DNA of 64,000 nt from an uncultured virus (IMG/VR IMGVR_UViG_3300042386_000493) (lineage: Duplodnaviria; Heunggongvirae; Uroviricota; Caudoviricetes): the IMG/VR virus record IMGVR_UViG_3300042386_000493, one strand, 5' to 3'. Of the stretch, positions 21,365 through 40,448 are shown in pieces. Within the stretch, counting starts at the first letter, position 1; every line of letters starts with the position of its first letter. The notes under the pieces were generated by a model. It searched no databases and had not been told where the DNA came from. It saw only the letters and a list, made by a program, of their open reading frames with translations. Made by a program: the position numbers and the translations under genes.

Positions 21365-21907
21365 TTAATTCCAGTATCGGCTAACTTGATAAATAGAAGT
21401 CTTTAACCTTTTTTTCTTAAACACCCCGTCCCTACCTGTTGAAGTTTCGCGGGTATCGGCTTGGCTCGTATTGCCCTCAATAGTTTCAACCCATTTATTT
21501 CCCCAAGCGGTTAGTATTCCTGTATGACCCACCCGCTTTAGGTTTGGATAATACAACGTAAAAACGTCCCCTCCTACGGGAGTTACATTGTTCTTAGCGG
21601 GATAACGTCTATCGTATATGCGGTTATTTGCAGTAGCAGAAGCCGACCACGCAGTAACCTTGTTAGGTATCTTACACTCGTCGAGTATGAATTTTACAAA
21701 GCAGCTACACCACGCAGCGGGAGTAGTTATACCCGCGTTTAGCAAGTATTCAGTCACTCTCTTCCCTTTATTGTTACCTCCCTCTTCTCTAATACCAACT
21801 TCCTTTTCAGCGTTCTTAATTATACATTCGCGCTTCGTCATCTTGCAAGTGTCGCAAGTGAATGAGGTTAATGAGATTAGGAGGATTAGGGCTAGTAGTT
21901 TCTTCAT
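21365..21907 (-). CDS. CHAP-domain endolysin with N-terminal signal sequence
   Basis: Start revised to ATG 21907 (MKKLLALILLISLTSFTC); AWCSCFV, GHTGI, TIEGNT. Confidence 0.85.
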   Translation of the reverse strand: MKKLLALILLISLTSFTCDTCKMTKRECIIKNAEKEVGIREEGGNNKGKRVTEYLLNAGITTPAAWCSCFVKFILDECKIPNKVTAWSASATANNRIYDRRYPAKNNVTPVGGDVFTLYYPNLKRVGHTGILTAWGNKWVETIEGNTSQADTRETSTGRDGVFKKKRLKTSIYQVSRYWN

Positions 21908-22239
21908 ATAATCGCTAAGATAATTAGTCCAAACGCTCCTAGATACAAGCAAAGCAATTTGAAGTAATCTTGGGGCATCTTTCCATTACCATCCAACCAA
22001 GTCTTATACTCATTGAATACACTCGGTTGATTGAACTTAATCGCCCCGTGAGCAAGAGCATTACCACTTAGAATAGTGATAGCCGCCATTACAATAGTCT
22101 GCACCCAGTCATCTTGATAAATAGCGTTGGTGCTATCCATCCACAACAATACTTTTTGCAAAAAAACAAGTCCTAGAATAGCTATTGGAATAGCAAATAT
22201 TTCGGGGTATAGGCGGACAATTTTGAATAGTTTTTTCAT
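21904..22239 (-). CDS. Three-TM membrane protein, holin candidate
   Basis: Hydrophobic segments; adjacent to the endolysin. Confidence 0.6.
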   Translation of the reverse strand: MKKLFKIVRLYPEIFAIPIAILGLVFLQKVLLWMDSTNAIYQDDWVQTIVMAAITILSGNALAHGAIKFNQPSVFNEYKTWLDGNGKMPQDYFKLLCLYLGAFGLIILAII

Positions 22240-22533: not shown

Positions 22534-25500
22534 TTATCTTTTAAACTCTTGCAACTTACTCTTATACTCCTCTTGAACCTTCCACATTCTAGTAGGTATA
22601 TCATAACCTCTTGTCTTACAAAACTCTTGGAAAGCCGCATCAGTAGCGATTGAATTTAATAGTGTCAACTCTTTCGCAATAGCTTTAGGAATTTCATTCT
22701 CCTCTAAAATGTTTATCATTTCCGATTGAATCTTAATTCTATCACTACTAACTGTTAAGTCCAGCTCTTGTCCTTTAAGACTCAAACGTGCCGTTGCTTC
22801 TTTCTTAAGATTATCGTAAGTTGCCGTACCTACCTTGGGTAAATTAACGTCTTTAGGCGCTCTTTTTTCGGGATTAGACTTGTAGTAAGCCTCTAATAAA
22901 GTGCCGTATTTAACCGCTTTAGCATAACTAAAATCGTAGTATTCTTCCTCCGTCATAGTTCTGCCTTTCCCATCATTGCCGATAACCGTTAAATTAGGGT
23001 CTAGCACCGAAGGGGTGTTTAAAGACGGCTTGTATTTATTTTGAAACAAATCTATTTCATCAGCACCATCTTTCTTTGACATCGATTTAACAAAACCTCT
23101 TGTGCTATTTGCATAAACGTCTGCTTGGTCAAACGAACGCCCTCTATAATCAAAAGCCTTTCTATCTACCATAAACGACATAATACCACTTTGCTTGTAT
23201 AGCTGCTCTTTAAGACCGATAGGGTTCTTTGCTTCCGAATTAGCCATATCTACACCTTGTCTAAAAAAGCCTGTTGCTGGTACAATAGCGCGGGTTGAAA
23301 ATTCCGCAATAGTTCTATTCCAATACTTGCTAGACTGTACGGAGTTTTCGGTAGCCAACGACCTGTAAAGACTTTGCATACCTCTTAGGTATTCATCATC
23401 TAAAATACCAACCATTACACGTTCTCCAATAGTCATTACCGCATTGTCAGCGTCTTGGGCTTTAACTGCGGTTAACCTTTTTTGCTCACGCTTCCAGTCC
23501 TCATACACCCCTAATAAAATTAGGTTTAAGTCCATCGTGTTTGTAGCTTGGAATGGTATAGTATAACCATTGATAGTTATTGAGTTTGAAGGTCTAATGG
23601 TTCTCTCAACTTGGTTGTCCCTCCAATCGGTAGTGCCTTGCGCGGTTATAGCCTTTCCGCTTTCTTCGTCGTCGTCAGCCCAACTGTAAAGAAGTGCCGC
23701 TATTAATCCTCCAATAGCTGCTCTCCAAGCGTATTCGCCAGCTCTTCTATAAGCTAGGTCTTTTTGCATTTGAGTCTCACTAAGAAGCCCTTTACCCACA
23801 TAAGCAAGTGATTTAACCGCACCGTATGGAGCAATTAACTCTAATCGTTTCTCTAGGATATTCGTGATACCTTTTAAGAACGGAAGTGTTTGAAGGAAGA
23901 TAATGTCATTGACAACTTTTGCCGAAGACTTAGCTATTTCTGCGGCTCTAGGGTTAGTTTTCTCCAACTTCATTGCCGCCAAGTTTACCGCTTGCGGTAA
24001 AGTCTTTTTAAGTTGAAGCAATCCAAAGTAAAGAATCCCGCTAATTCCCGCGTCAGGGGCTTTAAAGGTGTATCTATTAGCAAAGTAAGCGCCTTCTTTA
24101 ATAGCTTCTTTCTCTCTAGTTTGAGTTACAATCTCCTGAACGCGACGGTTAAATCTAAATCTATCCGCTTTAGAATCAGTTAACTCAATATCTCTATCCT
24201 TAAATTCTTTTGTCGCTTCTATTTCCGCTTCTTCGATTTGCTTCACATACATTATTTCGTATGCACGTTTAGCGGCTTCTGAATTGCTTAAAGTAGGGTC
24301 GTTTCGTTTTACTTGTTGCTTAATGAAGTCATACTCTCCAACTTCTTTTAACACCGAACCGTTGAGTGCGTCTGCGGCAGAAATAAGTCTACTTAACACT
24401 TTCTCTAAGTTCATTCCCGCAAGTCTAGGGTAATATATAGCCTTTCCAAGTGCGGTCATTCTAGGGTTTAACTTCTTGTGTTCGATATAACGAATACGAG
24501 GCGTACCCTCTTTTGTTTCGGTTGTTTCGCTAAACGCAGAGCCTAAGTCAACCCCACCGTTCCATAGAATATCTAGAAAATTAGCGGCAGCTTGTCCCGT
24601 AGATTTTCTTACTACCCTTAAAATCTCTTTATCTCCCTTGCCTTGCACTAACGCTAGGTTATTTACAAGCACCTTGTACGTTACCATATTCAAAGCTGTA
24701 AACACACCTAAAGCATTCTTTAAGATAGTAATGCCACCAGTTAATATTCTAGCCAACATACGCTCTACCGTTGCTTTCCAAAGGTGCATATAGTCCTTCT
24801 TGTCGAGGAAGTACAATAGCTTTTCTTCTAGGTACTCTCTTTCTGCGCCCATTGGCGAACGGTCAATCGCTTTAAGCATTGCTTCGATATACTCTTCATC
24901 CTCTAGCGTTATTTGCTTTAAGCCTATTTCTTCCGCCAGCTCATTACGTACATCTTCTTTGGTCAATGCACCCGTATTGTACATTTCAATTAACTTCTCT
25001 ACCCTTGTTTTTCTTCTAGCACGATTGAAGTTACCTCTTTTACGAGCAATAGTATTTACCGTTGCCTGTACGGCTCTTATCTTTTTATCGTTTACCGTAG
25101 CAAAGAACATATCTCTAAGTAACGGCTCTTGAATGGCGTAATCGGACGGTGATAGCGTTGCCTTGATAATCGCGTCTACTTTAGCCCACGCCGCATCGGG
25201 TGTTTTAGCGCCCTTTACCACGCTTTCCCAATCCACTACTTTTACAGTATTTCCTTTGACTACTTTCTCCTTAAAATAACCCGCGTCAATCATTGCCTTA
25301 TTAATCGACTTAAGAATTTCCGTAGGTTTCAGCGCCTTCTCTTGTTGCTTACCTTGTAGATATGCTTCGGCTTGTTTAGAGAATTTATCGGTATTATATA
25401 AAGCGTCTAATTCTGCGGCTTTCTCTCTAACGTTTTCCTCTTTTGTTTTACGGGCTTGTGCGTCCTTGATAGGTTGAGAAAGTAAACGACCAAAGGCGCT

Positions 25501-28500
25501 TGCTTTCGACTTTTTATCTTGCGCTTTTAGATAGTTTTCTACCGCATCAATATATGCGCTTCCGCCAATTTTAGCATCCAATTCATTTGCCGCCGCCCTT
25601 AATCTATCCTCTCTTTTAACGGGAGTTTTATTTGTAGGTTGTTTTGCTTGAAGTTGTTTTTCTAATTTTTCAACGTCCGAAATTAGTTTATTTTGTTCGG
25701 CTACTTTTGCTTTATTGGCAAAGTAATCGTCAACAAGTTTAGTATTTTCGGTTGTTCCTAACTCTTGGTCTAATCGAGCCGCTTCTTCACGTAGTTTTTG
25801 CTCTCTAGTTCGATTGTCAGTTGTTGGCTTTTTAGCGCGGTCTTGTAGGCTTTTTTCTAACTTGGCAACATCACTAGCAAGTTTACTTGTTTTTGCTTGG
25901 TCTAACTTTCTACTAAAATAGTCATTAACCATTTCAGTAAATTCAGTTGTATTTTTTTCAGCATCTAATCTAGAAGCCTCCTCTTTTAACCTTTCTTCCC
26001 TTGTTCTGGCATCTGTCTTAGGTTTATTTACTCTTTCTTCAAATTCTTTTTCAAACTTTGCTATATCACTAGCTAATTTATCATTCTTAGCTTGCTCTAA
26101 CTTTTCTTTAAAGTAATCATTTACTGCTTTAGTGTACTCGGTAGTTTCCTTTTCGGCATCTAGTCTAGCGGCTTCTTCACGTAACTTCTCTTCTCTAGTT
26201 CTATTATCTACTTTAGGCTTCTTCTCTCTTTCCTCAAACGCCTTTTCAAATCGTGCAATATCACGCTCTAATTTTTCTTCTTTAGCATCTTCTTCGCTTA
26301 TTCCAAAATACTCGTTAGCAGCATTACTGAAAGAGTCTGTTCCTAGAGAAGCATCTAAATCATCAGCTAACTCTTGAATCTTTTGCTTTCTAGTTTTATC
26401 GTCTTTTACTACTGGTAGTTGCTCTGAAAGGAATTTGCCAAACTTATTTATTTTAGAAGAAATTTCAGCGTTTCTTTTCTTATCCTCAATCTCTCGTTCT
26501 AACGCTTCAATCTTAGTTAAAGTCTCTAAAACCTCTTCATCGGTATTGAAGCCTTCCGCTCCATTTTCTACACTTTTATCTCTTAGATTAGAATACAAAT
26601 CGCCATACGTTTCTTGGTACTGACCACCCGTATTTTTACGCATCCAATCGTAGAAGTCTTGAAAAGAACGAACACCCTCTTGAACACCGTAAGCCCCAAT
26701 AACCCCTAGTTTCTTGTAAAGAACAGGGTCTAAAAACGGATTAGCACTAAGACGGACGGGGAGTTTTAACGCTTCCTTAAAGTCCTCTTTGCTAACACCA
26801 AAGTTTACACGCTTTCCTTTTGGCTTAGATATAGAAACAGTATTACCCGTTTTCTTTCCTTTAAGACCCTCCAGCTCTTTCTCTAAACGCTTAATCTCTT
26901 CTTGTTGCGCGTCAATAGTTTTAGCTTGGGTTTCTTCATTAAACACTTCTCCTAACGCTTCGTGAGTAGCTGTCGGGTCGTTGAGTACATCAACTATCTT
27001 TTGTGCGTTCTTGTCTGCGTTTTTAGCAAACAAGTCATTACGCTTTTTAACTGCTTTTCTAGCCTCTAGGATAACCGCTAGAGGTGACTTGTAGTAAATG
27101 TTGCGAACATAACTAATACCTCGACCAAAATCTCTTAAAGTATTGTCAAGTTTATTCGCCATTTCTATTTGCTTCTCCGCCCAATTCTCTTTATCTGCCC
27201 TAGTTTTTGCTTTCTCTTGATTTAACTTGTATGTGTTTATTGCCTGACCATACACGTACACCTTGATAACTGGCAAAACATTATTACTTTCTACATACTC
27301 TAAAGCCTTTTCTAAGCCCCCTAATTGCTCTATAATGGCATTACCCATAGCAATTACCTCGTCGTCGTGAAGTACGTTGTAAAACTCTCCTAATTCGCTA
27401 TTAATCTTTTCTTTTACATCTTCACTAAGGGTAGAATTGTTTAAAGCATCAATAACCGCTTTAAGTCTTTTTTCCGAAGGTGCTTTCTCTCCCGAATGAA
27501 TGTTTGGTGTTTCAGGTGTGATAGGAGTATTGAAGTCCATAAACACGTACTCTAGGAACTCATCAAAAGTTACCCCTTTCTCCTTCTCTACCACCTCACG
27601 AATAGCCGCGTACTTTTCACCTAGCAAGACTTCGGAGATATCTTCCATTGACATTCCTTTGTCTAGCAACTCTCCAATTTTAGACACAACTTTCGAAGAT
27701 ACCGTATTGGTAAGTTGAGGCATAATTTGACCGTCAGCTATCTTAACCCCCGTTTCCGCTTTCAATACCGCACCTACTCTTAAAGCACTTGCAAATTGTT
27801 TAGCAAAAGCCATTACGTCCGCGTCGGTGTTTAACGGTTGGGTAAGTTCTATCCCTAAAGAAGATAGGATAGATTTAAAGAAGTCCGCAATATCATTCCA
27901 TATAGTTTGACCTACTAGGTTTTTATGTTTGCCTATTGCTACGTTAGAAAGGAACTCACATACAATCTCAATATCTTTCTCCGCTTGGGTATAAGGCGCT
28001 AGATAATTACTATCCACCCACTCACCATACGTTTGTCCGTTAGGAGTTTGAACGTTTCTTAGTTTAGAAGCAAACGCGGTTGCAAGTTCGGGACGGGCAA
28101 GTATAACCGCCGCAATAACAGGGTGAGCCGCCTCGTGCGTTAGTGTGTTTGCGCCAGCCATTAAGCGATTAACTACGATTGAATCGGTAGATGCATCGTA
28201 AAAAGCCGCACTATTTTTAGCGTCCCTTTCATTCATTCCCGACTCCATTGCTTTCTTTTCGTAATCTTTGTGACCAAGCACGGTGATAGAAAGGTTTGGT
28301 GCTATTTTAGAAAGGGCTTTAACTACTTTCTTTACATTGCCTCTCATTGCCCTGAAAGGATATGTGTCAGTAATTTGCGCCTTTGGTGATAGGTCGGAAA
28401 GTAAATCGTCAAAAGAGGACTCAATTACTTCTTTTGAAGTAGCCGTTTTTTCAAACTCTTTAAGTTGCTTTTCAGCTTCTTTTCTTAATTCTTTTGCGGT

Positions 28501-28656
28501 TGGCTCTAGTTCTTCCTCCTCTTTAATAACTTTAGGGGTAAACAAGTCTATGACGGTAGCGGTATTCGCTTCATTACCCATCAATTTCTGCGTCAATAAA
28601 GCCTTAAACTCTTTCTCGGAGTATTCCTTACCCTTGTATGTGTAGACACAAGCCAT
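22534..28656 (-). CDS. Giant internal virion/ejection protein with zincin metallopeptidase motif and helical tandem repeats
   Basis: 2040 aa; THEAAH at 28123-28137 with downstream EIVCE; ~65-aa repeats; located after the tail genes. Confidence 0.75.
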   Translation of the reverse strand: MACVYTYKGKEYSEKEFKALLTQKLMGNEANTATVIDLFTPKVIKEEEELEPTAKELRKEAEKQLKEFEKTATSKEVIESSFDDLLSDLSPKAQITDTYPFRAMRGNVKKVVKALSKIAPNLSITVLGHKDYEKKAMESGMNERDAKNSAAFYDASTDSIVVNRLMAGANTLTHEAAHPVIAAVILARPELATAFASKLRNVQTPNGQTYGEWVDSNYLAPYTQAEKDIEIVCEFLSNVAIGKHKNLVGQTIWNDIADFFKSILSSLGIELTQPLNTDADVMAFAKQFASALRVGAVLKAETGVKIADGQIMPQLTNTVSSKVVSKIGELLDKGMSMEDISEVLLGEKYAAIREVVEKEKGVTFDEFLEYVFMDFNTPITPETPNIHSGEKAPSEKRLKAVIDALNNSTLSEDVKEKINSELGEFYNVLHDDEVIAMGNAIIEQLGGLEKALEYVESNNVLPVIKVYVYGQAINTYKLNQEKAKTRADKENWAEKQIEMANKLDNTLRDFGRGISYVRNIYYKSPLAVILEARKAVKKRNDLFAKNADKNAQKIVDVLNDPTATHEALGEVFNEETQAKTIDAQQEEIKRLEKELEGLKGKKTGNTVSISKPKGKRVNFGVSKEDFKEALKLPVRLSANPFLDPVLYKKLGVIGAYGVQEGVRSFQDFYDWMRKNTGGQYQETYGDLYSNLRDKSVENGAEGFNTDEEVLETLTKIEALEREIEDKKRNAEISSKINKFGKFLSEQLPVVKDDKTRKQKIQELADDLDASLGTDSFSNAANEYFGISEEDAKEEKLERDIARFEKAFEEREKKPKVDNRTREEKLREEAARLDAEKETTEYTKAVNDYFKEKLEQAKNDKLASDIAKFEKEFEERVNKPKTDARTREERLKEEASRLDAEKNTTEFTEMVNDYFSRKLDQAKTSKLASDVAKLEKSLQDRAKKPTTDNRTREQKLREEAARLDQELGTTENTKLVDDYFANKAKVAEQNKLISDVEKLEKQLQAKQPTNKTPVKREDRLRAAANELDAKIGGSAYIDAVENYLKAQDKKSKASAFGRLLSQPIKDAQARKTKEENVREKAAELDALYNTDKFSKQAEAYLQGKQQEKALKPTEILKSINKAMIDAGYFKEKVVKGNTVKVVDWESVVKGAKTPDAAWAKVDAIIKATLSPSDYAIQEPLLRDMFFATVNDKKIRAVQATVNTIARKRGNFNRARRKTRVEKLIEMYNTGALTKEDVRNELAEEIGLKQITLEDEEYIEAMLKAIDRSPMGAEREYLEEKLLYFLDKKDYMHLWKATVERMLARILTGGITILKNALGVFTALNMVTYKVLVNNLALVQGKGDKEILRVVRKSTGQAAANFLDILWNGGVDLGSAFSETTETKEGTPRIRYIEHKKLNPRMTALGKAIYYPRLAGMNLEKVLSRLISAADALNGSVLKEVGEYDFIKQQVKRNDPTLSNSEAAKRAYEIMYVKQIEEAEIEATKEFKDRDIELTDSKADRFRFNRRVQEIVTQTREKEAIKEGAYFANRYTFKAPDAGISGILYFGLLQLKKTLPQAVNLAAMKLEKTNPRAAEIAKSSAKVVNDIIFLQTLPFLKGITNILEKRLELIAPYGAVKSLAYVGKGLLSETQMQKDLAYRRAGEYAWRAAIGGLIAALLYSWADDDEESGKAITAQGTTDWRDNQVERTIRPSNSITINGYTIPFQATNTMDLNLILLGVYEDWKREQKRLTAVKAQDADNAVMTIGERVMVGILDDEYLRGMQSLYRSLATENSVQSSKYWNRTIAEFSTRAIVPATGFFRQGVDMANSEAKNPIGLKEQLYKQSGIMSFMVDRKAFDYRGRSFDQADVYANSTRGFVKSMSKKDGADEIDLFQNKYKPSLNTPSVLDPNLTVIGNDGKGRTMTEEEYYDFSYAKAVKYGTLLEAYYKSNPEKRAPKDVNLPKVGTATYDNLKKEATARLSLKGQELDLTVSSDRIKIQSEMINILEENEIPKAIAKELTLLNSIATDAAFQEFCKTRGYDIPTRMWKVQEEYKSKLQEFKR

Positions 28657-29150
28657 TATTTACCTAGTTTTTCGTCGATTTCAAGAAGTGCTGCGCTATT
28701 ATCTTTAGCGATATTGAGTAGGGAAAGAATGTCCTTCACCTCTCCTACTGCTTTTCTTTGAATTTCTATAAATTGTAGAAGAAACTGTGAGGTTACACAA
28801 TCTTTCATTTTATCTTCCGCTGACTCGTAAAACTGAACGTAGAAGTCTAGCAATGACTTTTCGGTTTCGTACACAATCTCAAAAGCGTCTAACAATCCTT
28901 TCGCTTTGTCCTTTTGTGCTTCTACAAGTGGTATTTCAGCCACGTCACCTCTATCGTTAATGTAGTCAACCAATATTTGATAGTGACCAAGTTCCGACTC
29001 CGCTTCCGAGTTAAAATACTTTTGCGTTCCAAAGAAACCAATAGCTTGCATTTGTGCGGCAAGTGAGCGATATAGATTGTGAGCGTACAACTCGTGACCT
29101 ATTGCTTTGATTAAACTTGCTTTTGTTTCTTTCTTTAGTAGTGATTCCAT
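28656..29150 (-). CDS. Non-heme ferritin
   Basis: HELYA..LY, YFNSEAESELGH, YINDRG, YETEK, D..TSQFL..FIEIQ: four-helix ferroxidase pattern; 164 aa. Confidence 0.9.
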   Translation of the reverse strand: MESLLKKETKASLIKAIGHELYAHNLYRSLAAQMQAIGFFGTQKYFNSEAESELGHYQILVDYINDRGDVAEIPLVEAQKDKAKGLLDAFEIVYETEKSLLDFYVQFYESAEDKMKDCVTSQFLLQFIEIQRKAVGEVKDILSLLNIAKDNSAALLEIDEKLGK

Positions 29151-29151
29151 T

Positions 29152-32100
29152 TTAGCACTTTACTTTTAGTATGTTATTGCCTTTAGCGTCTTTTACCTCT
29201 TTTAAGGACTCAATTATATCCTTGAAATTTGATTCTACAAATATAGCCTTTTCTCCTACTTCTCCGTATTCTTTTACGGCTTCTTCCATAGCTTCTTTTT
29301 TACCCTTTACGGTTTTCTTAGTGCGTTGGGCGTTTTCGATAGTATCAAATACTTCTAAGAGGGTTATTTCTTCGGCTGCTGGTTCTTGATTTTCTCTACC
29401 ACCTTCTTTAGAAACAGTTTCTTTAGTTCCTTCTTGATTTTTTGTTCTTTGTTCATTGCTTATTAATTCATTAAGTTTAACTTCATCTATATTGCCATCC
29501 GCGTCGATAGCGTCACCATACTTAGCTTCAATCTCTTCAATAGACATTTCGTCTATATCCATCATAGCTTCAATTACTTCAGCGGAGAACAACGCTTCAT
29601 AGGCTTCTTGTGCCTGTCTTTCCTCTTCAAACTGTTGTATCTCATAAAACTCTGCCGAGTCTCTTTCAAGGCGTTTATATTCCTCGTATTGTCGGGGCGT
29701 CATACCCATCATATCAGCATCGGTTTCAGCCAAGTAATCTTCTTCTAGAGTTATACGCATATCTAGCTTAGACTCCGAATTAAGAATGTCGATAATTATA
29801 CTCCTAATATCGGGTTGGTAAACCATTTCTTGCTGTTCTTCGGTTAGCATTGAGTGAATACTCTCGGACAACCTCTCAATAGAAATTGAATCTTTTTTAT
29901 GAAGCCCTATTTTCTTTTGTAACTCCTTATTCTTCCCTCTTAATCCTAACTCTTTTATCAACGACTCGGTAGAAACCTTACCTCCACCTGAAAAGTATTG
30001 TCTAATATAGGTTTCAACCGCTTTATCGGGGTCACGAGGTTCAAATTCTAAAGTGGCTTCTCTAAATCTTTTTCGTGCCGCCGTTTTATTCTTTTTCTTT
30101 GCTTTCTTAGCTGGAGTTTGCTCTTTTACGATATTTAATTCCGATAACGCCTCCGAAACGACACTCTCAATTTGCGTCTCTGTTTCTTGCGCCTCGGTTG
30201 TTTCTTGGACGATTTGTTCTACCGCTTCCTTACCTAAAATTTCATCAAACATTTTACGCAATTCGGGTGTTAATCCTTTGCCCGAAATTGATTTGTAAAC
30301 TGATTTAAAGGCTTCGCTTATTAGGTCTAAAACTTTTTGGAATGCTTCGCTAAATCCTTTGCCTCCTTCGGTATGGTACTTCTCCCAGCTTTCAGCAATG
30401 AACTCTTGTACTGCTCTGTATTGTTTGCTTGTTGTGCCTTCTTTAAACGCATCGTTACCCGCAATCAATTCGTCAACCGTTACTTGGCTTTTAGGGTTAG
30501 CCTTGTTAAATTCATCAACAATAGTTTGAGTGTGTTTAGTTCCTACTTTATTCCCCTCTTTTGCCCCGTCAATAATTGCCACTACCGTTGGGTGCATTAT
30601 CTCGTGTGTAAGCGCTACCGTTGCTCTTGGGCTACCGTTAAAGTCTTTGATAGCCTCTACTATGTTTTTACCATTTTCTATTCTGTATTGAGCGTTTACA
30701 CCTTGCTTTAAGGACTCTATATCTTTAGCACTTTTTATACTTGCTTCAGCCATCCCAACTTGGTTGCTACCTAAATTTGTAGACCCTTCTTTTGGATTAG
30801 CAATATCTTTTATATGACTTGTTTCAGATAGTATATTTAACCTAGGTCTTTTGCCGTCATTTTGCTTAATATGAAATGGATAACTTTCGTGTAACCCTTC
30901 AACTACTTCTACAGGCTTAGAAATTTCAATTGTTGCATATGCGTGACTATTAGGGACTCCTTGTGTCATTTCATCGGCAAATAATGCACCAATTGCATCT
31001 CGTATACCAGCCTCTCCAAATGTTATTTTTCTGCCTACTTCTTTAGAATTTAAAGCATCCCTTATATCATTTATGTTCTCGTGTACAGCCTTGCTATTTT
31101 CAGCAATATGATTTATTACATCTCTTACGAAGAAACCTCTCCCTTTAAAAGAAGAATCATTTACTCCAAAAAACTTTTTAGCTATATCTTCGTGAATAGA
31201 TTTTGAGTCTAATTTGCCATTAAAATCGATTCCTTGTGCCTTACCCGCTGCTATTAAAGCGTTTCTAAAATCTCTTAGCGGAATCATTCCATTATCAACC
31301 AAATATTCAACCACCGACATTGCTCCTTTAGCACCTGTTTGAGATGTTAAAGATTTACCTAAAGACCCTTTGGTTACAACAATATGTATTACTCCATTCC
31401 CGCCATTTTTTATATCAATTTCTCTTGCTGAATTTATATATTTTGCAAGAGTACTAGCGGTTGCTTTATCTGAAGACGCCCAAACATCACCAAATTTTGA
31501 TACAAAATGAATCCCTCCGTTAGCATTTAAAACAGGCTTACCATCTTTAGAAAGTATTTGACCAGTAATCATATTATCAGGGTTGATAATAACAACAGGC
31601 TTACCCTCAATTGATTTTATGTCAAAACCTTCTTTTATATAACCACTTTCTTTGAGTTTTTTATACTCAGCAGTTTCTTCAAAACCTATTTTTTCAAACG
31701 CTCCATATTTTTTAAACAAAGGTTGTCCGCTCTCTGCTTGTGCTTTTAGTTCAGGGGTTATGTTTATGGAGTGTTGTTTTAACTCCTCTGTTATTTTAAA
31801 TTCTTTTTTATAATTATTTATAGCTTCACTCTTTGTGTTCCCGCCAATTCCACGTTCATTTACAACACCATTTTTCGTAGCGACAAATCTTTTAAACGGC
31901 TTTATGTCGGTTGACATTGATTTGTACACAAAGTCTTTAGCTTCTTTTTTGGACTTAAATTCCTTTAGTGTAGTTTCTCCTTTTTCATTTTTTGTAATAG
32001 CCAAAAAAAACCCGTCTTTTTCTACCACAAAGTTATCTTTGCCATCTTTATGAATTAAGCTTTTAAATGTTGTTATGTTTCCGCTTTCGTTTTCGCTTAT

Positions 32101-35100
32101 TTGTTCTATCGGCGTTAATTCCTCTAAAACAGCATCGTATATTACGTCAACTTCTTCGGTTAGATTAACAATTTTCGGCTCTTGCTTAAACAAACTCTTA
32201 GCTACATTACCCACTATGCCTAAACTACCTTCTGTTGGTGAGCCGTAAAAGCCTTTCATTCCTTTGCCGCCTACGGAAAGATTTTCGCCAGTTAATGACT
32301 TAACTCCTTCTACATAGCTTTCTACATCTTCGCCCAATGAATTAGACATTCTATCCGCTATGTCTTTTCCAAGTTCTGATTCAACGGTTTTTAAGTCGGC
32401 ATATTCTTTTGAGCCTATTTCTACTCCGTTTTTAATAGCGGAATAATTGTATGTCCCGTCTCCGTTGTCGTTGTATTGTATTTCATCTACTTGCTTACTT
32501 AAATCATACCTATCATTTTGTTGCTCACCAGTAGTCCAAGCTATCTTATCAGCACCTTGCTTAACCGCTTCTTTTAAAGCTACTTTTAAACCTAATTTAG
32601 TCCAAGCGTTTGTGTCGATTACAAAGGGGGCGGTGGGGATACCCATTGTATTAAGCGCTTTCAAGGCTCTTTCTTTAGCGTCAATTTCCGTATCTCCGTC
32701 AGCTATTATTCTCCCTTGTGGGTCAATTACTTCAAAATATTCGATAACAGTATTATCTTTAATACTTGACTTTACGCTTTTAATTTTGTAATCAACAGGT
32801 AAATTTTTAATATTTTTAATAAACCCTTCCTTCTTCCCTTGTTGCCCCCAATCGCTTTGCACTTCTTCTAAGAACAATACTTTCTTGCCTTCCGCATCTA
32901 TACGGGTATTCATTCTTAAATGAACAAGGATGTTGGGTTCTTCAAAGTGGGAGGAATTGAATTCCTTAGAGCTTAATCCCGCTTTTTCAGAATAATATTT
33001 CGATTCTGATTCCTTTTTAGCTTCTGCAAGTGAAGAATACGTCCCTATATTTGTTTCTACTGGGTCGCCATTTACCGCTCTAACTGAAAAAGCGGCATAT
33101 CTTCCTTCTTTTGTTTTTATAATTTCAATACTACTTTTCGCATCAACCCAATTACCCTCTTCAATTTCTTCCCACTCAAATATTTTATCAGTTCTTTTGT
33201 TAGGCAACGTAACCAATACCTCTTTGTAGTTTTCTTTTTCTCCTTCTAATTGGTATTCAGAGAATTTGGTTTCATTTAAAGTATTTACCCTATCTAAATT
33301 ATTGCTTGTTAGTATGTCAAAGGCGTTTTGCTCCGCTTCTGACATATCATCGTAGTCAAATGCTTCTTCGTCTTTTTCTACATAAGTATCACCATTTCTA
33401 TCGGTAATAACATCATACCCTTTATCCTCAAAAACTTTTCTTGCATCAGCTTTTGACATAGTTGCTTCCGCCCCTTTAACCACCTCAACAATTTCAATCC
33501 TATTGTCTTTTAGGTATTGTTGTATGTCCGCTTTAGATACCGAACCTTGTTGTTGAGAGAGCCAATCTTTTAATCCAGTCCATTTCGCTTCTTCACTATT
33601 AGCATATTTTTCTAACCATTGTTTTGCGGGAAGTTTATCTTGCTTAACACCATTAATTATTGCTTCTAATGGTGAGTAAAATCCGTTTACTACATCGGGC
33701 GAAATGTTTTTTACTTGCACGTCCTCCCCGTTAATCTTTAACGAATAAGGCTTTTCACTTCCTTTACCAATACCAACCCAATCACCAACGGTTTTAGCTG
33801 CCGTAAGCCCCGCTTTTTTCAAGCCACTAAACACTTGTGAGATAACATTATGTACTGGTTCTACATCAGCCTTATTAACCCCAAAGTTTTCAATTTGTTG
33901 CTTTGTTTCCGCCTCTTCCTCTACACCTTCTTGTGGTTGACCCATTTGCTTAACGTCTTGAGTATTTTCACTCAATGGCTTTGCTTTAGCATCTTCGGCT
34001 TCTTGCTCGTCTAACTCTGCATTCATTTCAGCCAAACGCTTTGCTCTAGCATTTTCTTTAACAGAATCAACTTTGGCGGTTGATTCAACAATAGGAGCCT
34101 CAATCTTATTTATTACAATTTCTTGCTTTTGCTCCATAGACATTTTATCTATATCTTCTTGCTTATAGCCAAGTTTTAATAGCGGTTTGTCAAATGAATT
34201 TGGCTTTGTTTGAATTTCTAATTGTGGCAAATCAAAAGAAACGCTAGGCGACACCCCTTCGGGTACGATTTCCGCTACTTCTTCCGCTTTTATACCCGCT
34301 TGGGTACTCGTAGGCTTGCCTACATTTGTGATTAAGTCGTTATACTTATCGTAGATAGGCTTATATATAGCATACAAGTCATCGGGCATATTGCCTTGAT
34401 TTTCACCGTATGTATCAAACTCACCTATGTTGGGTATAGCCTTAGCTAACTCCTCTTGTTCTTGTTTTCTATATTCAGCAACTAGTTCCGCGTCCTCTTG
34501 GGTGCTTTCTACGATAGGGGTTTCTTGGGTAACTTCTGCGGTTTGGGCAGCATTTGATTTCTTGCCTCTAGCTAAAATTGGCAAATCAACTTCAACAGTC
34601 CCGTTTCTCCAATAAATGTTTGAACTATCTAGTCCTAAAGACTCCATATATGGGGTTAGTGCTTGTCTTACTATGTCAAACTCTTGGTTATTTTTAACTT
34701 CAATAACATCAAAATCCCCCGCTTTTACATCAATCCCTAACTCATTTACTATCGCGTCGCCATTTATAGCAACTCTATTTGTTTTTAATTTACCATTTTC
34801 ATCATATTGCAAGTCGTACCCTCTACTTAATTGTTGTTCCCAAACTCTTAGTCCGTCAGTAGATATGCTAGTTTTTTCAGTATATTCGTGTCCTTCGGGA
34901 AGTCTTGCTTGAACTTCTGAAATCATTGTTTTGAAATTACCCTTATTCCTAGATTGATTTTCAAACTTTGAACTCCATTTGTTTGTTGGCTTTCCATCTT
35001 CGTATAATCTATAAAACCCAACAAAATCACGTCCCGAAACACCGCTTACTACAATATCAACAACTCCCGTATTAGGATTTGAAAACTCAACGACATCAAT

Positions 35101-37968
35101 TCCATCTACAATATTATGATTAGAAACAACTGAATTTACACCACTACCTCCTAACTCATTAGAGAAAATACCTACATCCTCAAATAAAGAAGGATTAAGC
35201 ATTTGAGAAGTAAAATCACGCTGCTCAACAACATTTTCGTTGATTAACTCATTCCCCACGACATTAGTTACCTTTTCATCCGCCCCAGCTTCTACATCGT
35301 ATGTCTCTCCTACTTTCTTACCATTAAATACCGCATCTACATCACTATCTATCTTTTCGATTTCCGCTTGGATGTTCGGGTCTTTCACTCCCGCTTCTTT
35401 TTGCGCTCTTTGTAATTGCTTCTTTCTAAACGATTCGGATATAACAAAGTTCTTCTCCGTTTGGCTTAATGCCGTGAAAGAAGGTAGTTGACGCATACCC
35501 GCACCGATTCCCTGTATCTCGGTAATTACCGCTACGTTTTCGGGAGCAATAGTCGCAACTCTCAATACGTCCTCCTCCGTTGTTTCAGCAATAGCGCCTA
35601 TCAAAGATTGTTGGGTAGGGCTTTTTTGGTCGGGACGGCTTATAGCGGTCATCGCACCACCTACCATAGCGCCAGCAGTTATGGCATCAAACAAAGCATC
35701 CGCCTTGAATAAGTCTTTGTAAATTTCTTTTTCCTCTGCGAAGTTCAATATTGATTTAGTCACATCAACACCGATATTCTCCGCGCCTTCTTCCGCGCCT
35801 TCTTGAAGCATATTCTTTGAGTACGCCTTCAAACTTTGGGGCATCGCTTTTAACCCTTGCTTAATAGCGTCTTGAACCGAAGCCCCTTTTTTAATAGATT
35901 GTAAAATTGAAGCCCTAACTGCGCCGTCTAAATACCTAAAATCAGGTACTGCTAACTCTATCGTTGCTGAAATACCGCTAATAGCCGAAGAGTATAAACG
36001 CGCTTCGGTGGGCGATAGTCCGTTGCGTAGTGCTTCTTGGTAGTTATTACCTTCTTGAATTACAAAAGCAGTTCCCCACAAACTCATTAGTCGAGGTATT
36101 TTGGTAATAGCGAGGACTTCACCGCCAGCTATAAATGACATAAGACTACCTATACCCGAACCAAATAGTTCCGCTTTCTTCACAAAGTAAGGAATTTCTA
36201 CGTTTTCCCCGTATTCCAATTTCTCGTAGTTTTGCTCAAACTGTCTATTAACTGCATCGTCTAGCCAATCGGTAAATAGATAGTCAAGCATACCCGTTTG
36301 GTCAACAAAAGGTATTCCTAAATCTTTTTTAACTACACCTAAGACTATTTTAGGCAATTGTTTGACATTTAATCCCGCGGTCTCTAAGGCTTGTCCTGTC
36401 GCAATAATACCAGCCGCTACTGCTTCTTTAGCCTCTCCCGACTGTTCGGTAAACTCTAATCCTCTAGCTTTTTGTTCTTCACCTTTTTTAATCGCCTCAT
36501 ACAAGCCTTTATATTCTTTTACTCCGTCGGTTAAAATGCCACTTATTTGACTATTAAATGTTGCGGCGTTATTGATAACATTTAGCTTGTCTTGTGACAC
36601 TCCGTACTTTTCACCTAAAGCGTTATATTGTTCAATAACTTGATTTAGCTGGTTGTCAATTACAAGCGCTTTCTTTTCTTCTTCTGTTTGCTTTAACTTA
36701 CCATTCTCAAACAAATAAGAATAGTTTTTTTGAAGGTCGTTAGCTTGGGCTTCTAAAGCAGTTGCTCTTTGTTGTAGCCCTTCTACATAACCTCTTTTAC
36801 TCTCGTCTTTTAACATCCCGTCTTCGCCTACGTAACTAGAAAATTCAGCGCCAATGGCTTCTATTTCTTTGTTTAAAGCACCCATTTGAGAGTTGTACTC
36901 TTGGTACTTATTGCCTAGACTATTTTTTGGTGAGCCATCGGGGTTTACATACTTATCCCTTTCCGTTTTAAGGTTCTTAATCTTTTCTTCGTACATTGTG
37001 GCGTCTACACTATAAGCGTCGTAATCCATTGAGTACATTACTTTCTTCGCTTCTCTATTAGCGTAGTTTGCTTTAAGTTGTAGCGCTTCTTTCTCCAAGT
37101 CGTACAAGAACTTTTGTTCTTCAATGTTAGGTTCGCTTAATTTTGTTTCTATCTCCGATATACGCGCTTTAATATCCGAAGACCTTTCGGGGTCTGCTTT
37201 ATCTAAGTACGTCAAGTAATCGCCTACAAGGTTCTTTTTAAGTCCTTGTAAGTATTGTTTAGCCGATTCATCGTTAAACTTAGTCGCGTTGTTGTATGCG
37301 GCTGAAATTTCAGTCATAGGGGTTTTAGACATAGCCCCAAAATTATCCGCAGCCTTGTCGTAAATATCTTGTTGTATTCTAGCTGGCTCTTTTTCGTAAA
37401 ATTCGTTAGCCATCCCCTCTATTCTCTCAACAACCGTCGGATTCTTTTTTATTTCTTCCCATTCTTTTTGAGTCATTGCTTGTTCAAGAGTCGGGTCTTC
37501 CATAGACTTAGCCGCTTCTTTAAACGTTTGTTTAGGCACATCAATTCCTTTCATAGCTTCTTTAGACGAAACTACTTTAGGTGCTTTAGGCGTACTCTCC
37601 TTGAAATCCTCTAGACCTACATTTAATTGCTTTTGTTGCGGAACTACACGTTGGCTTGTTGGCTCTTCTCTGTATAATCCAATTTTAAGAGGATTTCCAC
37701 TCGGTGTTGAAGGCGTTACGGGCGGCGTTGATTGAGCGTTTGAACTTGCCCCACCATTGCCCGAAGGTGAGGCGGGTTGCTTTCCCAAGCCTAGTTGCGC
37801 GTCAAAGTCAGCCTCGTCTATAAACAAACCTTTTGTAGACTTTTCAGAATTAAACAACTCAAATACCGCTTTTTTATCTTTTGCGATTTGCGCTCTAAAG
37901 TCTGCTTCATCAATAAATAAACCTGTGCTTTTTACTGCGCTATATGCGTCTTTTATTTTATCGGGCAT
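29152..37968 (-). CDS. Giant polyvalent ejection protein (membrane-like segment, GNAT-like region, EEVQSDW domain, zincin motif)
   Basis: 2938 aa; QEGAEEGAE/GAMVGG segment typical of DNA-transfer proteins; LFLEEVQSDW at ~32850; THEIMH at 30592-30606 with downstream QEFIAE. Confidence 0.75.
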   Translation of the reverse strand: MPDKIKDAYSAVKSTGLFIDEADFRAQIAKDKKAVFELFNSEKSTKGLFIDEADFDAQLGLGKQPASPSGNGGASSNAQSTPPVTPSTPSGNPLKIGLYREEPTSQRVVPQQKQLNVGLEDFKESTPKAPKVVSSKEAMKGIDVPKQTFKEAAKSMEDPTLEQAMTQKEWEEIKKNPTVVERIEGMANEFYEKEPARIQQDIYDKAADNFGAMSKTPMTEISAAYNNATKFNDESAKQYLQGLKKNLVGDYLTYLDKADPERSSDIKARISEIETKLSEPNIEEQKFLYDLEKEALQLKANYANREAKKVMYSMDYDAYSVDATMYEEKIKNLKTERDKYVNPDGSPKNSLGNKYQEYNSQMGALNKEIEAIGAEFSSYVGEDGMLKDESKRGYVEGLQQRATALEAQANDLQKNYSYLFENGKLKQTEEEKKALVIDNQLNQVIEQYNALGEKYGVSQDKLNVINNAATFNSQISGILTDGVKEYKGLYEAIKKGEEQKARGLEFTEQSGEAKEAVAAGIIATGQALETAGLNVKQLPKIVLGVVKKDLGIPFVDQTGMLDYLFTDWLDDAVNRQFEQNYEKLEYGENVEIPYFVKKAELFGSGIGSLMSFIAGGEVLAITKIPRLMSLWGTAFVIQEGNNYQEALRNGLSPTEARLYSSAISGISATIELAVPDFRYLDGAVRASILQSIKKGASVQDAIKQGLKAMPQSLKAYSKNMLQEGAEEGAENIGVDVTKSILNFAEEKEIYKDLFKADALFDAITAGAMVGGAMTAISRPDQKSPTQQSLIGAIAETTEEDVLRVATIAPENVAVITEIQGIGAGMRQLPSFTALSQTEKNFVISESFRKKQLQRAQKEAGVKDPNIQAEIEKIDSDVDAVFNGKKVGETYDVEAGADEKVTNVVGNELINENVVEQRDFTSQMLNPSLFEDVGIFSNELGGSGVNSVVSNHNIVDGIDVVEFSNPNTGVVDIVVSGVSGRDFVGFYRLYEDGKPTNKWSSKFENQSRNKGNFKTMISEVQARLPEGHEYTEKTSISTDGLRVWEQQLSRGYDLQYDENGKLKTNRVAINGDAIVNELGIDVKAGDFDVIEVKNNQEFDIVRQALTPYMESLGLDSSNIYWRNGTVEVDLPILARGKKSNAAQTAEVTQETPIVESTQEDAELVAEYRKQEQEELAKAIPNIGEFDTYGENQGNMPDDLYAIYKPIYDKYNDLITNVGKPTSTQAGIKAEEVAEIVPEGVSPSVSFDLPQLEIQTKPNSFDKPLLKLGYKQEDIDKMSMEQKQEIVINKIEAPIVESTAKVDSVKENARAKRLAEMNAELDEQEAEDAKAKPLSENTQDVKQMGQPQEGVEEEAETKQQIENFGVNKADVEPVHNVISQVFSGLKKAGLTAAKTVGDWVGIGKGSEKPYSLKINGEDVQVKNISPDVVNGFYSPLEAIINGVKQDKLPAKQWLEKYANSEEAKWTGLKDWLSQQQGSVSKADIQQYLKDNRIEIVEVVKGAEATMSKADARKVFEDKGYDVITDRNGDTYVEKDEEAFDYDDMSEAEQNAFDILTSNNLDRVNTLNETKFSEYQLEGEKENYKEVLVTLPNKRTDKIFEWEEIEEGNWVDAKSSIEIIKTKEGRYAAFSVRAVNGDPVETNIGTYSSLAEAKKESESKYYSEKAGLSSKEFNSSHFEEPNILVHLRMNTRIDAEGKKVLFLEEVQSDWGQQGKKEGFIKNIKNLPVDYKIKSVKSSIKDNTVIEYFEVIDPQGRIIADGDTEIDAKERALKALNTMGIPTAPFVIDTNAWTKLGLKVALKEAVKQGADKIAWTTGEQQNDRYDLSKQVDEIQYNDNGDGTYNYSAIKNGVEIGSKEYADLKTVESELGKDIADRMSNSLGEDVESYVEGVKSLTGENLSVGGKGMKGFYGSPTEGSLGIVGNVAKSLFKQEPKIVNLTEEVDVIYDAVLEELTPIEQISENESGNITTFKSLIHKDGKDNFVVEKDGFFLAITKNEKGETTLKEFKSKKEAKDFVYKSMSTDIKPFKRFVATKNGVVNERGIGGNTKSEAINNYKKEFKITEELKQHSINITPELKAQAESGQPLFKKYGAFEKIGFEETAEYKKLKESGYIKEGFDIKSIEGKPVVIINPDNMITGQILSKDGKPVLNANGGIHFVSKFGDVWASSDKATASTLAKYINSAREIDIKNGGNGVIHIVVTKGSLGKSLTSQTGAKGAMSVVEYLVDNGMIPLRDFRNALIAAGKAQGIDFNGKLDSKSIHEDIAKKFFGVNDSSFKGRGFFVRDVINHIAENSKAVHENINDIRDALNSKEVGRKITFGEAGIRDAIGALFADEMTQGVPNSHAYATIEISKPVEVVEGLHESYPFHIKQNDGKRPRLNILSETSHIKDIANPKEGSTNLGSNQVGMAEASIKSAKDIESLKQGVNAQYRIENGKNIVEAIKDFNGSPRATVALTHEIMHPTVVAIIDGAKEGNKVGTKHTQTIVDEFNKANPKSQVTVDELIAGNDAFKEGTTSKQYRAVQEFIAESWEKYHTEGGKGFSEAFQKVLDLISEAFKSVYKSISGKGLTPELRKMFDEILGKEAVEQIVQETTEAQETETQIESVVSEALSELNIVKEQTPAKKAKKKNKTAARKRFREATLEFEPRDPDKAVETYIRQYFSGGGKVSTESLIKELGLRGKNKELQKKIGLHKKDSISIERLSESIHSMLTEEQQEMVYQPDIRSIIIDILNSESKLDMRITLEEDYLAETDADMMGMTPRQYEEYKRLERDSAEFYEIQQFEEERQAQEAYEALFSAEVIEAMMDIDEMSIEEIEAKYGDAIDADGNIDEVKLNELISNEQRTKNQEGTKETVSKEGGRENQEPAAEEITLLEVFDTIENAQRTKKTVKGKKEAMEEAVKEYGEVGEKAIFVESNFKDIIESLKEVKDAKGNNILKVKC

Positions 37969-37977
37969 TTCTTAAAA

Positions 37978-39510
37978 TTATTTGGTTGGTACTTTACCGC
38001 CTTTTGCTATATATGCTTGTCTTTCCGAAAGACTCATTGCTCTGTAATCGTCCATACTTATACTTGGTGCGCTTGAACTTGCCGACTTAGGCGCGTCCTT
38101 CTCGTACTTCTTAACTTCACTATCGAAGTCAATTCCAAAGTGAGTGTTTAAGCGCGACTTATTTGCTGGACTCAAAGGTATGGAAATAGGATTAGTATTT
38201 AAAGAAATAACTTGATATTCTCCATTACCTATGTCTATAAACTCTACGTCTTGACCCGAATAATCTGATTTTTCTTCCGCTTTAATAATAGACTTAGATT
38301 GACCTTCCTTGCCCTCGACTCTCCAAAACTCACTACCATCTGCACCTCTTGTTCTATAATAACGAAGTGGCACAAAAGCTATATCTCTATTGTCTTCGCT
38401 AATTACGTTAATAACTTTTACGTCACCCGTTTTCCAGTCGGTTACGTCTAGTCCTTTAAGCGGTCTAGTCGCCTTAACATTCCCCATCTCCTTTTTCAAT
38501 CTTATCAACTCTTGGTTTTCCGCGTCAGTTAAGAAGTTGGTATTAGTATCCACGGCGTTTTGATACTTCGCCTCTAGTTCTTTTATTCTTTGTGATTTAC
38601 CCGAACTTGAAGTAGGTGTAAATCCTTCGTCGTAAATAGGGGACAAGCCAACCTTACTCTTTTCTCTATCACCTCCAAAGCTGCTTGAACTATACCCTGT
38701 AATATTGTATGTTTCATTACCCTTAGCCATCACCTCGTCAGTCATATGCTCTAGGAATCCATCCGCGTCTTTCCAATAACCCGCTTTCAATCCAGCTTCG
38801 TAGGTACGAGTCATATCGTCTGCGGTTGTTGGGTCAAGAGTAAATTTCTTAAATTGACCGTCTACAAACGTCCTTACCTTATCTCGATTCAATTTCCCCG
38901 TTTGTCCTATCACTCCACCTCCTAACATTTTGTCTTTAACGTCTGCGGCGGGCATCAACTTAACAATAGCGTTTTGAATATCAAACGGTTTTTGAGGTAG
39001 TGGGTTGTTGTCTTTATATTCAATTCTTGCCGCTAAATTAGGCTGGGCTTTCAATCCCTCGTACCATTTCTTCACATCTTCGGGGTCATACTCCCCTTGA
39101 CTATTGAACAAATCTTCTGAAAACTTGTATAAATCATCCCCTTCTTTCTTTGCTTTCGCTATTCGTTGCATATAAGGCATAATAGCCTTTTGGTACTCTA
39201 TACTATCGGGGTCTAGTCCACTTGCCGCCGCTTCTGCCGCTACATTAGAAATTTCTTCTACCGCCTTTGTTAAATCCTCTTGGTTAGCCCAGTTCAATTC
39301 ATTAATATCAGGTAGCTTGTAGTTATTCCACTTCGCCTTACGCTCTAACTGTTGTTTCGCTTTAGCGGTTTCTTTAGCCTCCATCTCCGTATTCATATTC
39401 TCTAGGAATTTGATAGGGTCAAAAGAACTTTGGTCGAGAACTGCGGCGTAACCCGTATTAGCTTTTTGCGTTACCCCTAGTGGGGTTGCGTTTGGTATTC
39501 CTAGTTCCAT
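37978..39510 (-). CDS. Internal virion/ejection protein
   Basis: 510 aa, helical, no Cys; position between pilot-like and giant proteins. Confidence 0.6.
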   Translation of the reverse strand: MELGIPNATPLGVTQKANTGYAAVLDQSSFDPIKFLENMNTEMEAKETAKAKQQLERKAKWNNYKLPDINELNWANQEDLTKAVEEISNVAAEAAASGLDPDSIEYQKAIMPYMQRIAKAKKEGDDLYKFSEDLFNSQGEYDPEDVKKWYEGLKAQPNLAARIEYKDNNPLPQKPFDIQNAIVKLMPAADVKDKMLGGGVIGQTGKLNRDKVRTFVDGQFKKFTLDPTTADDMTRTYEAGLKAGYWKDADGFLEHMTDEVMAKGNETYNITGYSSSSFGGDREKSKVGLSPIYDEGFTPTSSSGKSQRIKELEAKYQNAVDTNTNFLTDAENQELIRLKKEMGNVKATRPLKGLDVTDWKTGDVKVINVISEDNRDIAFVPLRYYRTRGADGSEFWRVEGKEGQSKSIIKAEEKSDYSGQDVEFIDIGNGEYQVISLNTNPISIPLSPANKSRLNTHFGIDFDSEVKKYEKDAPKSASSSAPSISMDDYRAMSLSERQAYIAKGGKVPTK

Positions 39511-39511
39511 A

Positions 39512-40345
39512 TTAACTATTTCTTAAAAGTTGAGTCATTAAAGCAAATTGCTCTTGTGTTATTTGTCCTTTCGCTAAAGCGGCTTTAATACCCTCTATCG
39601 TTGCGTTATCAAGAACCCCTTGCGCCCCACCTATGGTAGCCGCATTGCTTTTAGCTAGATTATCGACAAACTCTTGTGAAGCCTTCGCGCCATTATTGGA
39701 ATAATTTTGAGTCATTGCGTCTGCGGGTAGTGAGGATTGGTTGCCTTGAAACGCTTTTAACCACGCCGCATTATCCTCGTTAGCGTTTTGCATCTTCATC
39801 CCCATCACTCCAGCGCCAACTACGCCCTTCATTCCCTCGTACTTGTTTCTCATTCCCGCCTCACCTAGCGCTTGTGCCGCCGCTGCTTTCTCTTGAAAGG
39901 GTTGGTTCACGTTGTAGTCCCACGCCTTATCTTGGTATTCCGCATACTTATTTAACTCTCCTAACACCGCGTTTTGACGTAATTGGTAGTCTTGGGCAGC
40001 GTTTAAACCTAATTGATTCTCTTGTCCCATTTGGTTAGAATAAACTCCCGATAAAGCCGCTAGTGCCTCTACTCCGCTTGACGAGTTTTGGTTAATATCG
40101 TACAAGGCGTTTGCACTCGCTTGGTCAAGTCGTTGCTCCACGTTTGCTTGTCCCGCCATATTCATTGACGAAGCTAAATTCTTTGAGCGATTTAACGCTT
40201 GGGTTTTTGCTTCGGGAATATTGTATGTAGGGCGTTGTAGGTTCTTTAGAATGTCTTTTGAACGTGCGCCTTGAATTAATCCAACCACACCCTGCGTTGC
40301 TGCAGGAATGGCTGATAAAGCAGCAAGAGTAATCGGGTCAAACAT
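39512..40345 (-). CDS. Pilot-like ejection protein (Ala/Gln/Gly-rich)
   Basis: MFDPITLAALSAIP...GVVGLIQG N-terminus; promoter TATATTTG at 40365-40372. Confidence 0.65.
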   Translation of the reverse strand: MFDPITLAALSAIPAATQGVVGLIQGARSKDILKNLQRPTYNIPEAKTQALNRSKNLASSMNMAGQANVEQRLDQASANALYDINQNSSSGVEALAALSGVYSNQMGQENQLGLNAAQDYQLRQNAVLGELNKYAEYQDKAWDYNVNQPFQEKAAAAQALGEAGMRNKYEGMKGVVGAGVMGMKMQNANEDNAAWLKAFQGNQSSLPADAMTQNYSNNGAKASQEFVDNLAKSNAATIGGAQGVLDNATIEGIKAALAKGQITQEQFALMTQLLRNS

Positions 40346-40448
40346 AGTGAGCGAATTTAAGATACAAATATAGTGAAATTATAGCACTAATAAGATAAAC
40401 GCCATTTTTTGTAAACAATTTTGATTTGCTATTTAACTAGCTTGTAAA

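Follow-up and report, generated by a model that had tools for sequence, protein, structure and literature searches.

Introduction

The order in which megadaltons of unfolded cargo exit the tail of a podovirus is an open question. In the cyanopodophage A4 (Anabaena phage A-4L), cryo-electron microscopy (cryo-EM) of the pre-ejectosome resolved a disulfide between Cys1715 of gp27 and Cys5 of gp26, which the accessible text of the report presents as one stabilizing contact and does not generalize (PMC12002296). Cargo of phage crAss001 must partly unfold to leave the tail, and its order is described, in the accessible text, only as likely set by packing and interactions; the crAss001 tail is disulfide-stabilized, and the disulfide passages of that text concern tail and vertex proteins (PMC10172136). 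For phi14:2, neither "cys" nor "disulfide" occurs in the accessible text of the preprint (bioRxiv 10.1101/2020.03.07.982082). Ejection proteins of Schitoviridae (N4 gp50 and DEV gp71) show a strong suppression of cysteine, which has been attributed to their passage through the oxidizing periplasm (PMC11445570). Here we analyzed the cargo genes of an uncultured tailed virus (IMG/VR record IMGVR_UViG_3300042386_000493; a stretch of 64,000 nucleotides, hereafter the window), in which one giant cargo protein ends in its only cysteine and a second giant carries a cysteine at position 3.

An initial annotation of the window suggested that these two cysteines join the giants tail to head through a disulfide or metal bridge, which would fix the order of ejection and be released in the reducing cytoplasm. 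Comparison among relatives revealed cysteine depletion, pairwise occurrence of the terminal cysteines, natural fused counterparts and, by alignment, the mapping of both cysteines to consecutive residues of a fused protein. We consider it probable (roughly 0.75) that a Cys2938-Cys3 disulfide locks the two halves of a split domain, stands in for a peptide bond, and would thereby yield one thread of ~4,980 residues. Literature searches, for which most subscription papers and supplements lay outside the scope, recovered the A4 bond and no general account of terminal-cysteine chains, the split domain or a junction ferritin. New here are a probable coupler in a non-crAss phage without an RNA polymerase, the mapping onto fusions, and a ferritin cassette.

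Results

Cysteines of the cargo block

The features of the cargo block are as follows (aa, amino acids).

39512..40345, minus strand: 277-aa Cys-free protein with a hydrophobic N-terminus, likely the first ejection protein
37978..39510, minus strand: 510-aa Cys-free protein, likely a small ejection protein, judging from its position after the tail genes
29152..37968, minus strand: giant cargo protein 1, polyvalent type, 2938 aa; sole Cys is residue 2938; one HExxH motif, at 2455
29155..29370, minus strand: predicted C-terminal half-domain of giant 1, ~70 aa; helical, with a short final strand whose last residue is Cys2938
29155-29157, minus strand: Cys2938 codon of giant 1
28656..29150, minus strand: ferritin, 164 aa; nearest type, bacterial non-haem ferritin
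22534..28656, minus strand: giant cargo protein 2, 2040 aa; Cys at 3, 233 and 2013; HExxH motif at 174
28537..28656, minus strand: predicted N-terminal half-domain of giant 2; a beta-hairpin, then a helix; bears Cys3
28648-28650, minus strand: Cys3 codon of giant 2

A script count of cysteines agreed with the initial annotation, which had read the last residue of giant 1 as its only Cys, giant 2 as beginning MAC and having two other Cys, and the 510-aa and 277-aa proteins as having none. The same annotation treated the giants as neighbors; it overlooked the 164-aa ferritin open reading frame (ORF) between them, which starts 1 nt past the giant 1 stop codon and overlaps the giant 2 start by 1 nt. 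At the rate of 43 Cys in 7000 aa, taken from 14 other minus-strand ORFs of the structural region (≥190 aa, position 40400 onward), ~35 Cys would be expected in the four cargo proteins, and 4 were found (Poisson P ~3 × 10–11). Given the Cys counts of the giants, one giant would have a Cys among its last 10 residues and the other a Cys among its first 10 with a probability of ~5 × 10–5. A separate contig (L001), which is ~95% identical, carries identical giant ends, hence the terminal cysteines are not a sequencing slip. Giant 2 closes the cargo block as its last gene, and its own end lacks Cys; it has a single hydrophobic stretch (residues 1304-1322).

Terminal cysteines among homologues

Next, we counted cysteines in homologues of giant 1, taking the best 120 of 586 found with its internal region or domains. 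Of the 102 Cys that these 120 proteins contain among 357,485 residues, 22 fall within ten residues of the start, 42 within ten of the end and 38 elsewhere, giving frequencies of 1.8%, 3.5% and 0.011%, respectively (14 of the cysteines in the set sit in one single protein). By class, 34 homologues were Cys-ended, 15 Cys-started, 7 both and 64 neither. For a test of pairing, loci were fetched by two Cys-free domains, so that the sampling was blind to Cys, and a partner gene was sought within 6 kb. A terminal Cys had a partner in 10 cases and none in 2, a partner without a terminal Cys occurred once, and neither was present in 107. On inspection by eye, the exceptions were a different protein (L027), a frameshift (L116) and an unrelated neighbor (L098); the raw counts were kept. 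Terminal cysteines therefore occurred almost only as pairs of an upstream end and a downstream start, in line with the co-occurrence in syntenic pairs that the initial annotation had proposed as a check.

The single giants of the cultured phages elemovirus E, phi38:1 and Panino have no Cys at all. In three-member chains (phi14:2, crAss001 and L013), the middle protein has a Cys at both ends and the outer ends have none; the members are gp67-gp66-gp65 in phi14:2 and gp47-gp50-gp49 in crAss001, where gp47 lies on the opposite strand. The terminal cysteines that the initial annotation mentioned for crAss-like cargo are present in the two genomes checked, phi14:2 and crAss001.

We also noted 0.7-5.1 kb of other genes between Cys-ended and Cys-started giants in four loci (L138:10801-15892, L032, L064 and L068); hence the partner gene need not adjoin. 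A second type of Cys junction, with other end sequences and no ferritin, was seen in L064, L068 and L090, of which two belong to phages with GC contents of 49% and 63%; this implies further independent families of putative couplers. Separately, two internal cysteines at a short spacing of 8-22 residues were present in P0014, P0037, P0046, P0054, P0036, crAss001 gp45 and phi14:2 gp69, which are otherwise Cys-poor cargo proteins; several of the pairs adjoin hydrophobic stretches, and they are possibly periplasmic loop disulfides.

A split domain and its natural fusions

When the C-terminal ends of 35 junctions were aligned, the Cys and one Leu were invariant, and the Cys was likewise invariant in the alignment of the 35 N-terminal starts. 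An AlphaFold model of the C-terminal half-domain had a predicted local distance difference test score (pLDDT) of 88.6. A profile of the C-terminal ends found that domain inside P0072, a protein of 3582 aa without Cys, and the N-start motif followed directly after it. In all, four fused giants (2813-3582 aa, no Cys in any) carry both halves in succession. The initial annotation had proposed a search for single fused ORFs as a check; both cysteines are absent in these fusions. Three other relatives have a free second half whose sole Cys is residue 5, and one of them, P0128, shares 75% identity with P0072, starting at residue 1508 of the latter. In close relatives, one and the same protein thus exists either as a fusion, held by a peptide bond, or in two pieces with a Cys on both sides of the break. 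Projected on P0072, the two cysteines fall on consecutive residues, G1505 for the C-terminal Cys and K1506 for the N-terminal one. In a model of the fused stretch (pLDDT 80, predicted template modelling score (pTM) 0.56), G1505 and K1506 lie in a turn between the short strand of the C-terminal half and the hairpin of the N-terminal half. By these comparisons, one small domain, which the fused relatives carry whole, is divided between the giants, with ~70 residues at the end of giant 1 and ~40 at the start of giant 2.

A fold search of the PDB with the C-terminal half returned nothing at E ≤ 0.001, and no PDB sequence matched either end; the fused domain likewise found nothing at E ≤ 0.001 in a viral structure library. 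Searches with the window's own ends returned only near-copies and L002; a match in L004 was judged to be due to chance.

A ferritin at the junction

The ORF between the giants matched the ferritin family PF00210 (E = 2 × 10–20; 73.5 bits against a cut-off of 24.5), and its best PDB matches were bacterial non-haem ferritins of the FtnA type (E = 2 × 10–20). Six residues (E20, E49, E53, H56, E97 and Q131) are the same in all 65 distinct viral copies; by analogy with FtnA, they are predicted iron ligands. Only one of 50,697 phage records matched this ferritin, and that match was unannotated.

To place the gene, we used the best 80 of 120 loci fetched by ferritin alone, with a query built from four junction copies and one other. 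The ferritin lay between a Cys-ended and a Cys-started giant in 52 loci, and in 3 more with one side cut; in another 19 it stood between a portal gene and one that is probably for the scaffold, which leaves 6 at other positions, 3 of them following portal genes according to PHROGs. After clustering of all ferritin loci at 90% identity, junction copies made up 31 of 38 clusters (34-66% GC). We also searched with a DNA pattern of the C-terminal end that names neither Cys nor ferritin, and obtained 71 matches, 11 of them by chance and 60 real, mostly from one high-GC group; 41 of the 60 overlap the ferritin-fetched set. Every one of the 60 has a Cys followed by a stop codon within two residues, and in 59 a ferritin and then an N-terminal-Cys gene follow, the remaining one being cut by the contig end. 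The C-terminal end, the ferritin and the N-terminal start form a three-part cassette that spans phages of 34-66% GC. Short contigs from genome bins assigned to Burkholderiales, Rhodoferax, Sulfuricella and Cyanobacteriota also carry the C-terminal end, which hints that it reaches other host phyla; such bins can be wrong. We noted that giants beside near-identical cassettes (L145, L156, L197 and L211) differ in their Zeta-toxin-like, ART-PolyVal, PBECR1 and LPD domains.

A requirement of ferritin for the link was ruled out. L308 has both half-domains and no ferritin between them. Among the 19 phages with ferritin beside the portal, a close group, all seven inspected have one unsplit giant without a terminal Cys. 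A ferritin profile found no match in phi14:2, crAss001 or A-4L, even though Cys chains are present in them. Judged by gene content, the ferritin is dispensable for the link. In L153, a relative of the portal-ferritin phages, the giant is split and the ferritin sits at the break, and in L021 the ferritin follows a Cys-free single giant. The ferritin tree needs at least four changes between junction and non-junction positions, hence the gene moves; the tree does not give the direction.

Non-junction ferritin usually stands directly behind the portal gene, in unrelated phage types (the L160-L193 group, L190, L195 and L221); the portal is like that of the window in 19 loci and belongs to PHROGs families 12082 and 21 in three others. 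This position beside the portal suggests that the ferritin is tied to head assembly. Most likely, it is a late-expressed, accessory iron-binding passenger inherited with both halves as one cassette.

Nature of the phage and of the giants

Among the matches listed by tblastn, the window's terminase and portal matched those of Flavobacterium elemoviruses and Cellulophaga, Tenacibaculum and Maribacter phages (22-27% identity), from which a host in the Bacteroidota can be weakly inferred. The RNA-polymerase motif D[FY]DxD was looked for in both giants and not found, and blastp of the giants against crAss001 and phi14:2 cargo gave no match; the phage is thus not a crAss-like RNA-polymerase carrier. 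Residues 2099-2382 of giant 1 weakly match a single elemovirus protein of 3694 aa annotated "structural protein" (E = 2 × 10–11). Homologues of the giants give mosaic matches and carry LPD1, LPD23, LPD38, ART-PolyVal and PBECR1 domains; a Pfam scan of the window's own giants matched no family, inteins included. From the gene position, the depletion of Cys and the weak match to an annotated structural protein, we infer that the giants are packaged in the virion and injected.

A Cys-free protein of the 510-aa type occupies the equivalent position in elemovirus, phi38:1 and Panino. These three phages also share with the window a GroES-like gene just upstream of the terminase region (61704-62423, minus strand, in the window). 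Giant 2 is directly followed by an endolysin-like gene, assigned to PHROGs 9589, together with a small hydrophobic ORF (21365-22239, minus strand).

Discussion

We suggest the following sequence of events. Both giants would be packed in the head, their half-domains docking non-covalently during assembly in the reducing cytoplasm, and the disulfide would form after lysis, in air. During ejection the cargo would partly unfold and the non-covalent contacts would fail; the bond could then keep the chain whole, so that giant 1 draws giant 2 behind it, while an interior free of Cys would keep mispairing from occurring in the periplasm. Once in the cytoplasm, the bond may be reduced, which would part the giants or free giant 2, as an optional step. 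Such release, which the initial annotation had included, is probably not the purpose of the link, since Cys-free close relatives are fused and cannot release in this way. The coupler may also permit a gene to lie within the cargo reading frame, here that of the ferritin.

Several observations weigh against this proposal. Giant 2 has two further cysteines, Cys233 and Cys2013. All four fusions come from a single lineage (95-97% identity across the domain), and the fold of the fused stretch was built on an alignment covering its first half only. In the pair test, 59 ends were excluded for insufficient flank; the rows are related, so that the Fisher P value of 6 × 10–12 overstates their independence; and the L077 pair proved by eye to be a start-site artefact, leaving nine real pairs. 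Moreover, the A4 precedent is an analogy only, because neither the A4 nor the crAss ends match the half-domain profiles.

The same data can be read in other ways. The halves might dock non-covalently while each Cys serves otherwise, for instance in homotypic ring pairing or modification. Homotypic Cys-Cys bonds do occur in virions (crAss001 gp57, 47-47; PMC10172136), and some C-terminal ends run up to 8 residues beyond the Cys. However, independent roles leave unexplained the joint loss of both cysteines in the fusions, the adjacent mapping of the two, and the lack of Cys at the outer ends (the N-terminus of the first member and the C-terminus of the last), and we regard this explanation as distinctly unlikely. 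Still less probable is a metal (Fe from the adjoining ferritin, or Zn) bound by the two cysteines and bridging the ends, possibly across ring subunits. A ferritin does adjoin, and pairwise conservation would suit any two-Cys link, but neither half has a further invariant His, Cys, Glu or Asp, the Cys positions are consecutive in the fusion, and the sole solved case, A4, is a disulfide. Of the "disulfide or metal bridge" initially put forward, it is thus the disulfide that gains from the A4 precedent and the consecutive mapping, and the metal bridge that is less supported. Trans-splicing or ligation in the manner of a split intein, which would join the chains by a peptide bond, is hardly credible: the terminal Cys and, in the high-GC group, the Asn preceding it are reminiscent of such a reaction, but no Pfam family, intein included, was found in either giant and the features of a split-intein Hint domain were not found. 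In addition, variable residues precede the N-terminal Cys, whose position ranges from 3 to 7; the window has no such Asn, and most relatives have residues after the C-terminal Cys.

A further idea, compatible with the proposed disulfide as an add-on, is that the di-iron centre of the ferritin oxidizes both thiols or provides an oxidant for them within the procapsid, and hence before lysis. The junction position of the gene in 52 of 80 loci (with 3 more cut on one side) and in 31 of 38 clusters across 34-66% GC, its presence in 59 of 60 matches to the ferritin-blind pattern, the invariance of the predicted iron ligands, and the fact that elsewhere it mostly follows the portal gene would all suit such a role. 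However, the query came mostly from junction copies and the counts are therefore biased, and tight linkage by itself accounts for the matching identities. The idea also sits poorly with the halves of L308, which lack ferritin, with the seven inspected portal-ferritin phages, which have an unsplit giant and no terminal Cys, with the ferritin behind a Cys-free single giant in L021, and with the Cys chains of phi14:2, crAss001 and A-4L, which give no match to the ferritin profile. We therefore hold it to be doubtful. Equally tentative is a bolder idea, namely that a mobile cassette enters giant ejection genes across bacterial phyla, the halves and the disulfide mending the break and the ferritin acting in the cytoplasm as the oxidase that seals the bond. 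If true, the cassette would amount to an intron analogue at the protein level and would serve as a universal plug for mixing effector chains that are injected as one thread.

A disulfide between the facing ends, as we propose, would have wider implications. A covalent tail-to-head tether offers a concrete mechanism for cargo order, and the fused and split pairs reveal what it would replace: one peptide bond in one small domain. Protein engineering might also make use of the arrangement, as a compact coupler in two parts that would be redox-cleavable. The ferritin cassette, for its part, connects an iron protein with virion assembly in two phage groups that differ widely.

Comparison with known systems

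The closest parallel is A4, where, as in the window, adjacent large ejection proteins bear a Cys at the upstream end and at the downstream start; Cys1715 of gp27 (1717 aa) and Cys5 of gp26 (1114 aa) are the only cysteines of these proteins, whereas giant 2 of the window carries two extra, internal ones. A4 belongs to a different phage group, the half-domain profiles do not match the gp27 and gp26 ends, and A-4L gives no ferritin match; its contact consists of a long helix seated in a cleft rather than a split beta-meander (PMC12002296). A4 thus shows, by analogy, that a terminal-Cys arrangement can be a disulfide, not that the one in the window is. The RNA-polymerase cargo block of Crassvirales (phi14:2 and crAss001) follows an equal terminal-Cys chain rule, but the giants of the window lack both the D[FY]DxD motif and homology to that cargo, and the end modules differ.

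The giants resemble phage polyvalent proteins (PMC5512222) in being very large mosaics with HExxH metallopeptidase motifs and, in their homologues, LPD and effector domains, and differ in that the window's own giants match no Pfam family; the words cysteine, disulfide and ferritin do not occur in the accessible text of that article. The ferritin is like bacterial non-haem ferritins in its best PDB matches and its conserved predicted iron ligands; by contrast, the viral copies are phage-borne and sit among the virion genes, either where the cargo giants meet or behind the portal. Finally, depletion of Cys is shared with the Schitoviridae, but there the giant is one Cys-free chain, whereas the depletion in the window spares exactly the facing termini.

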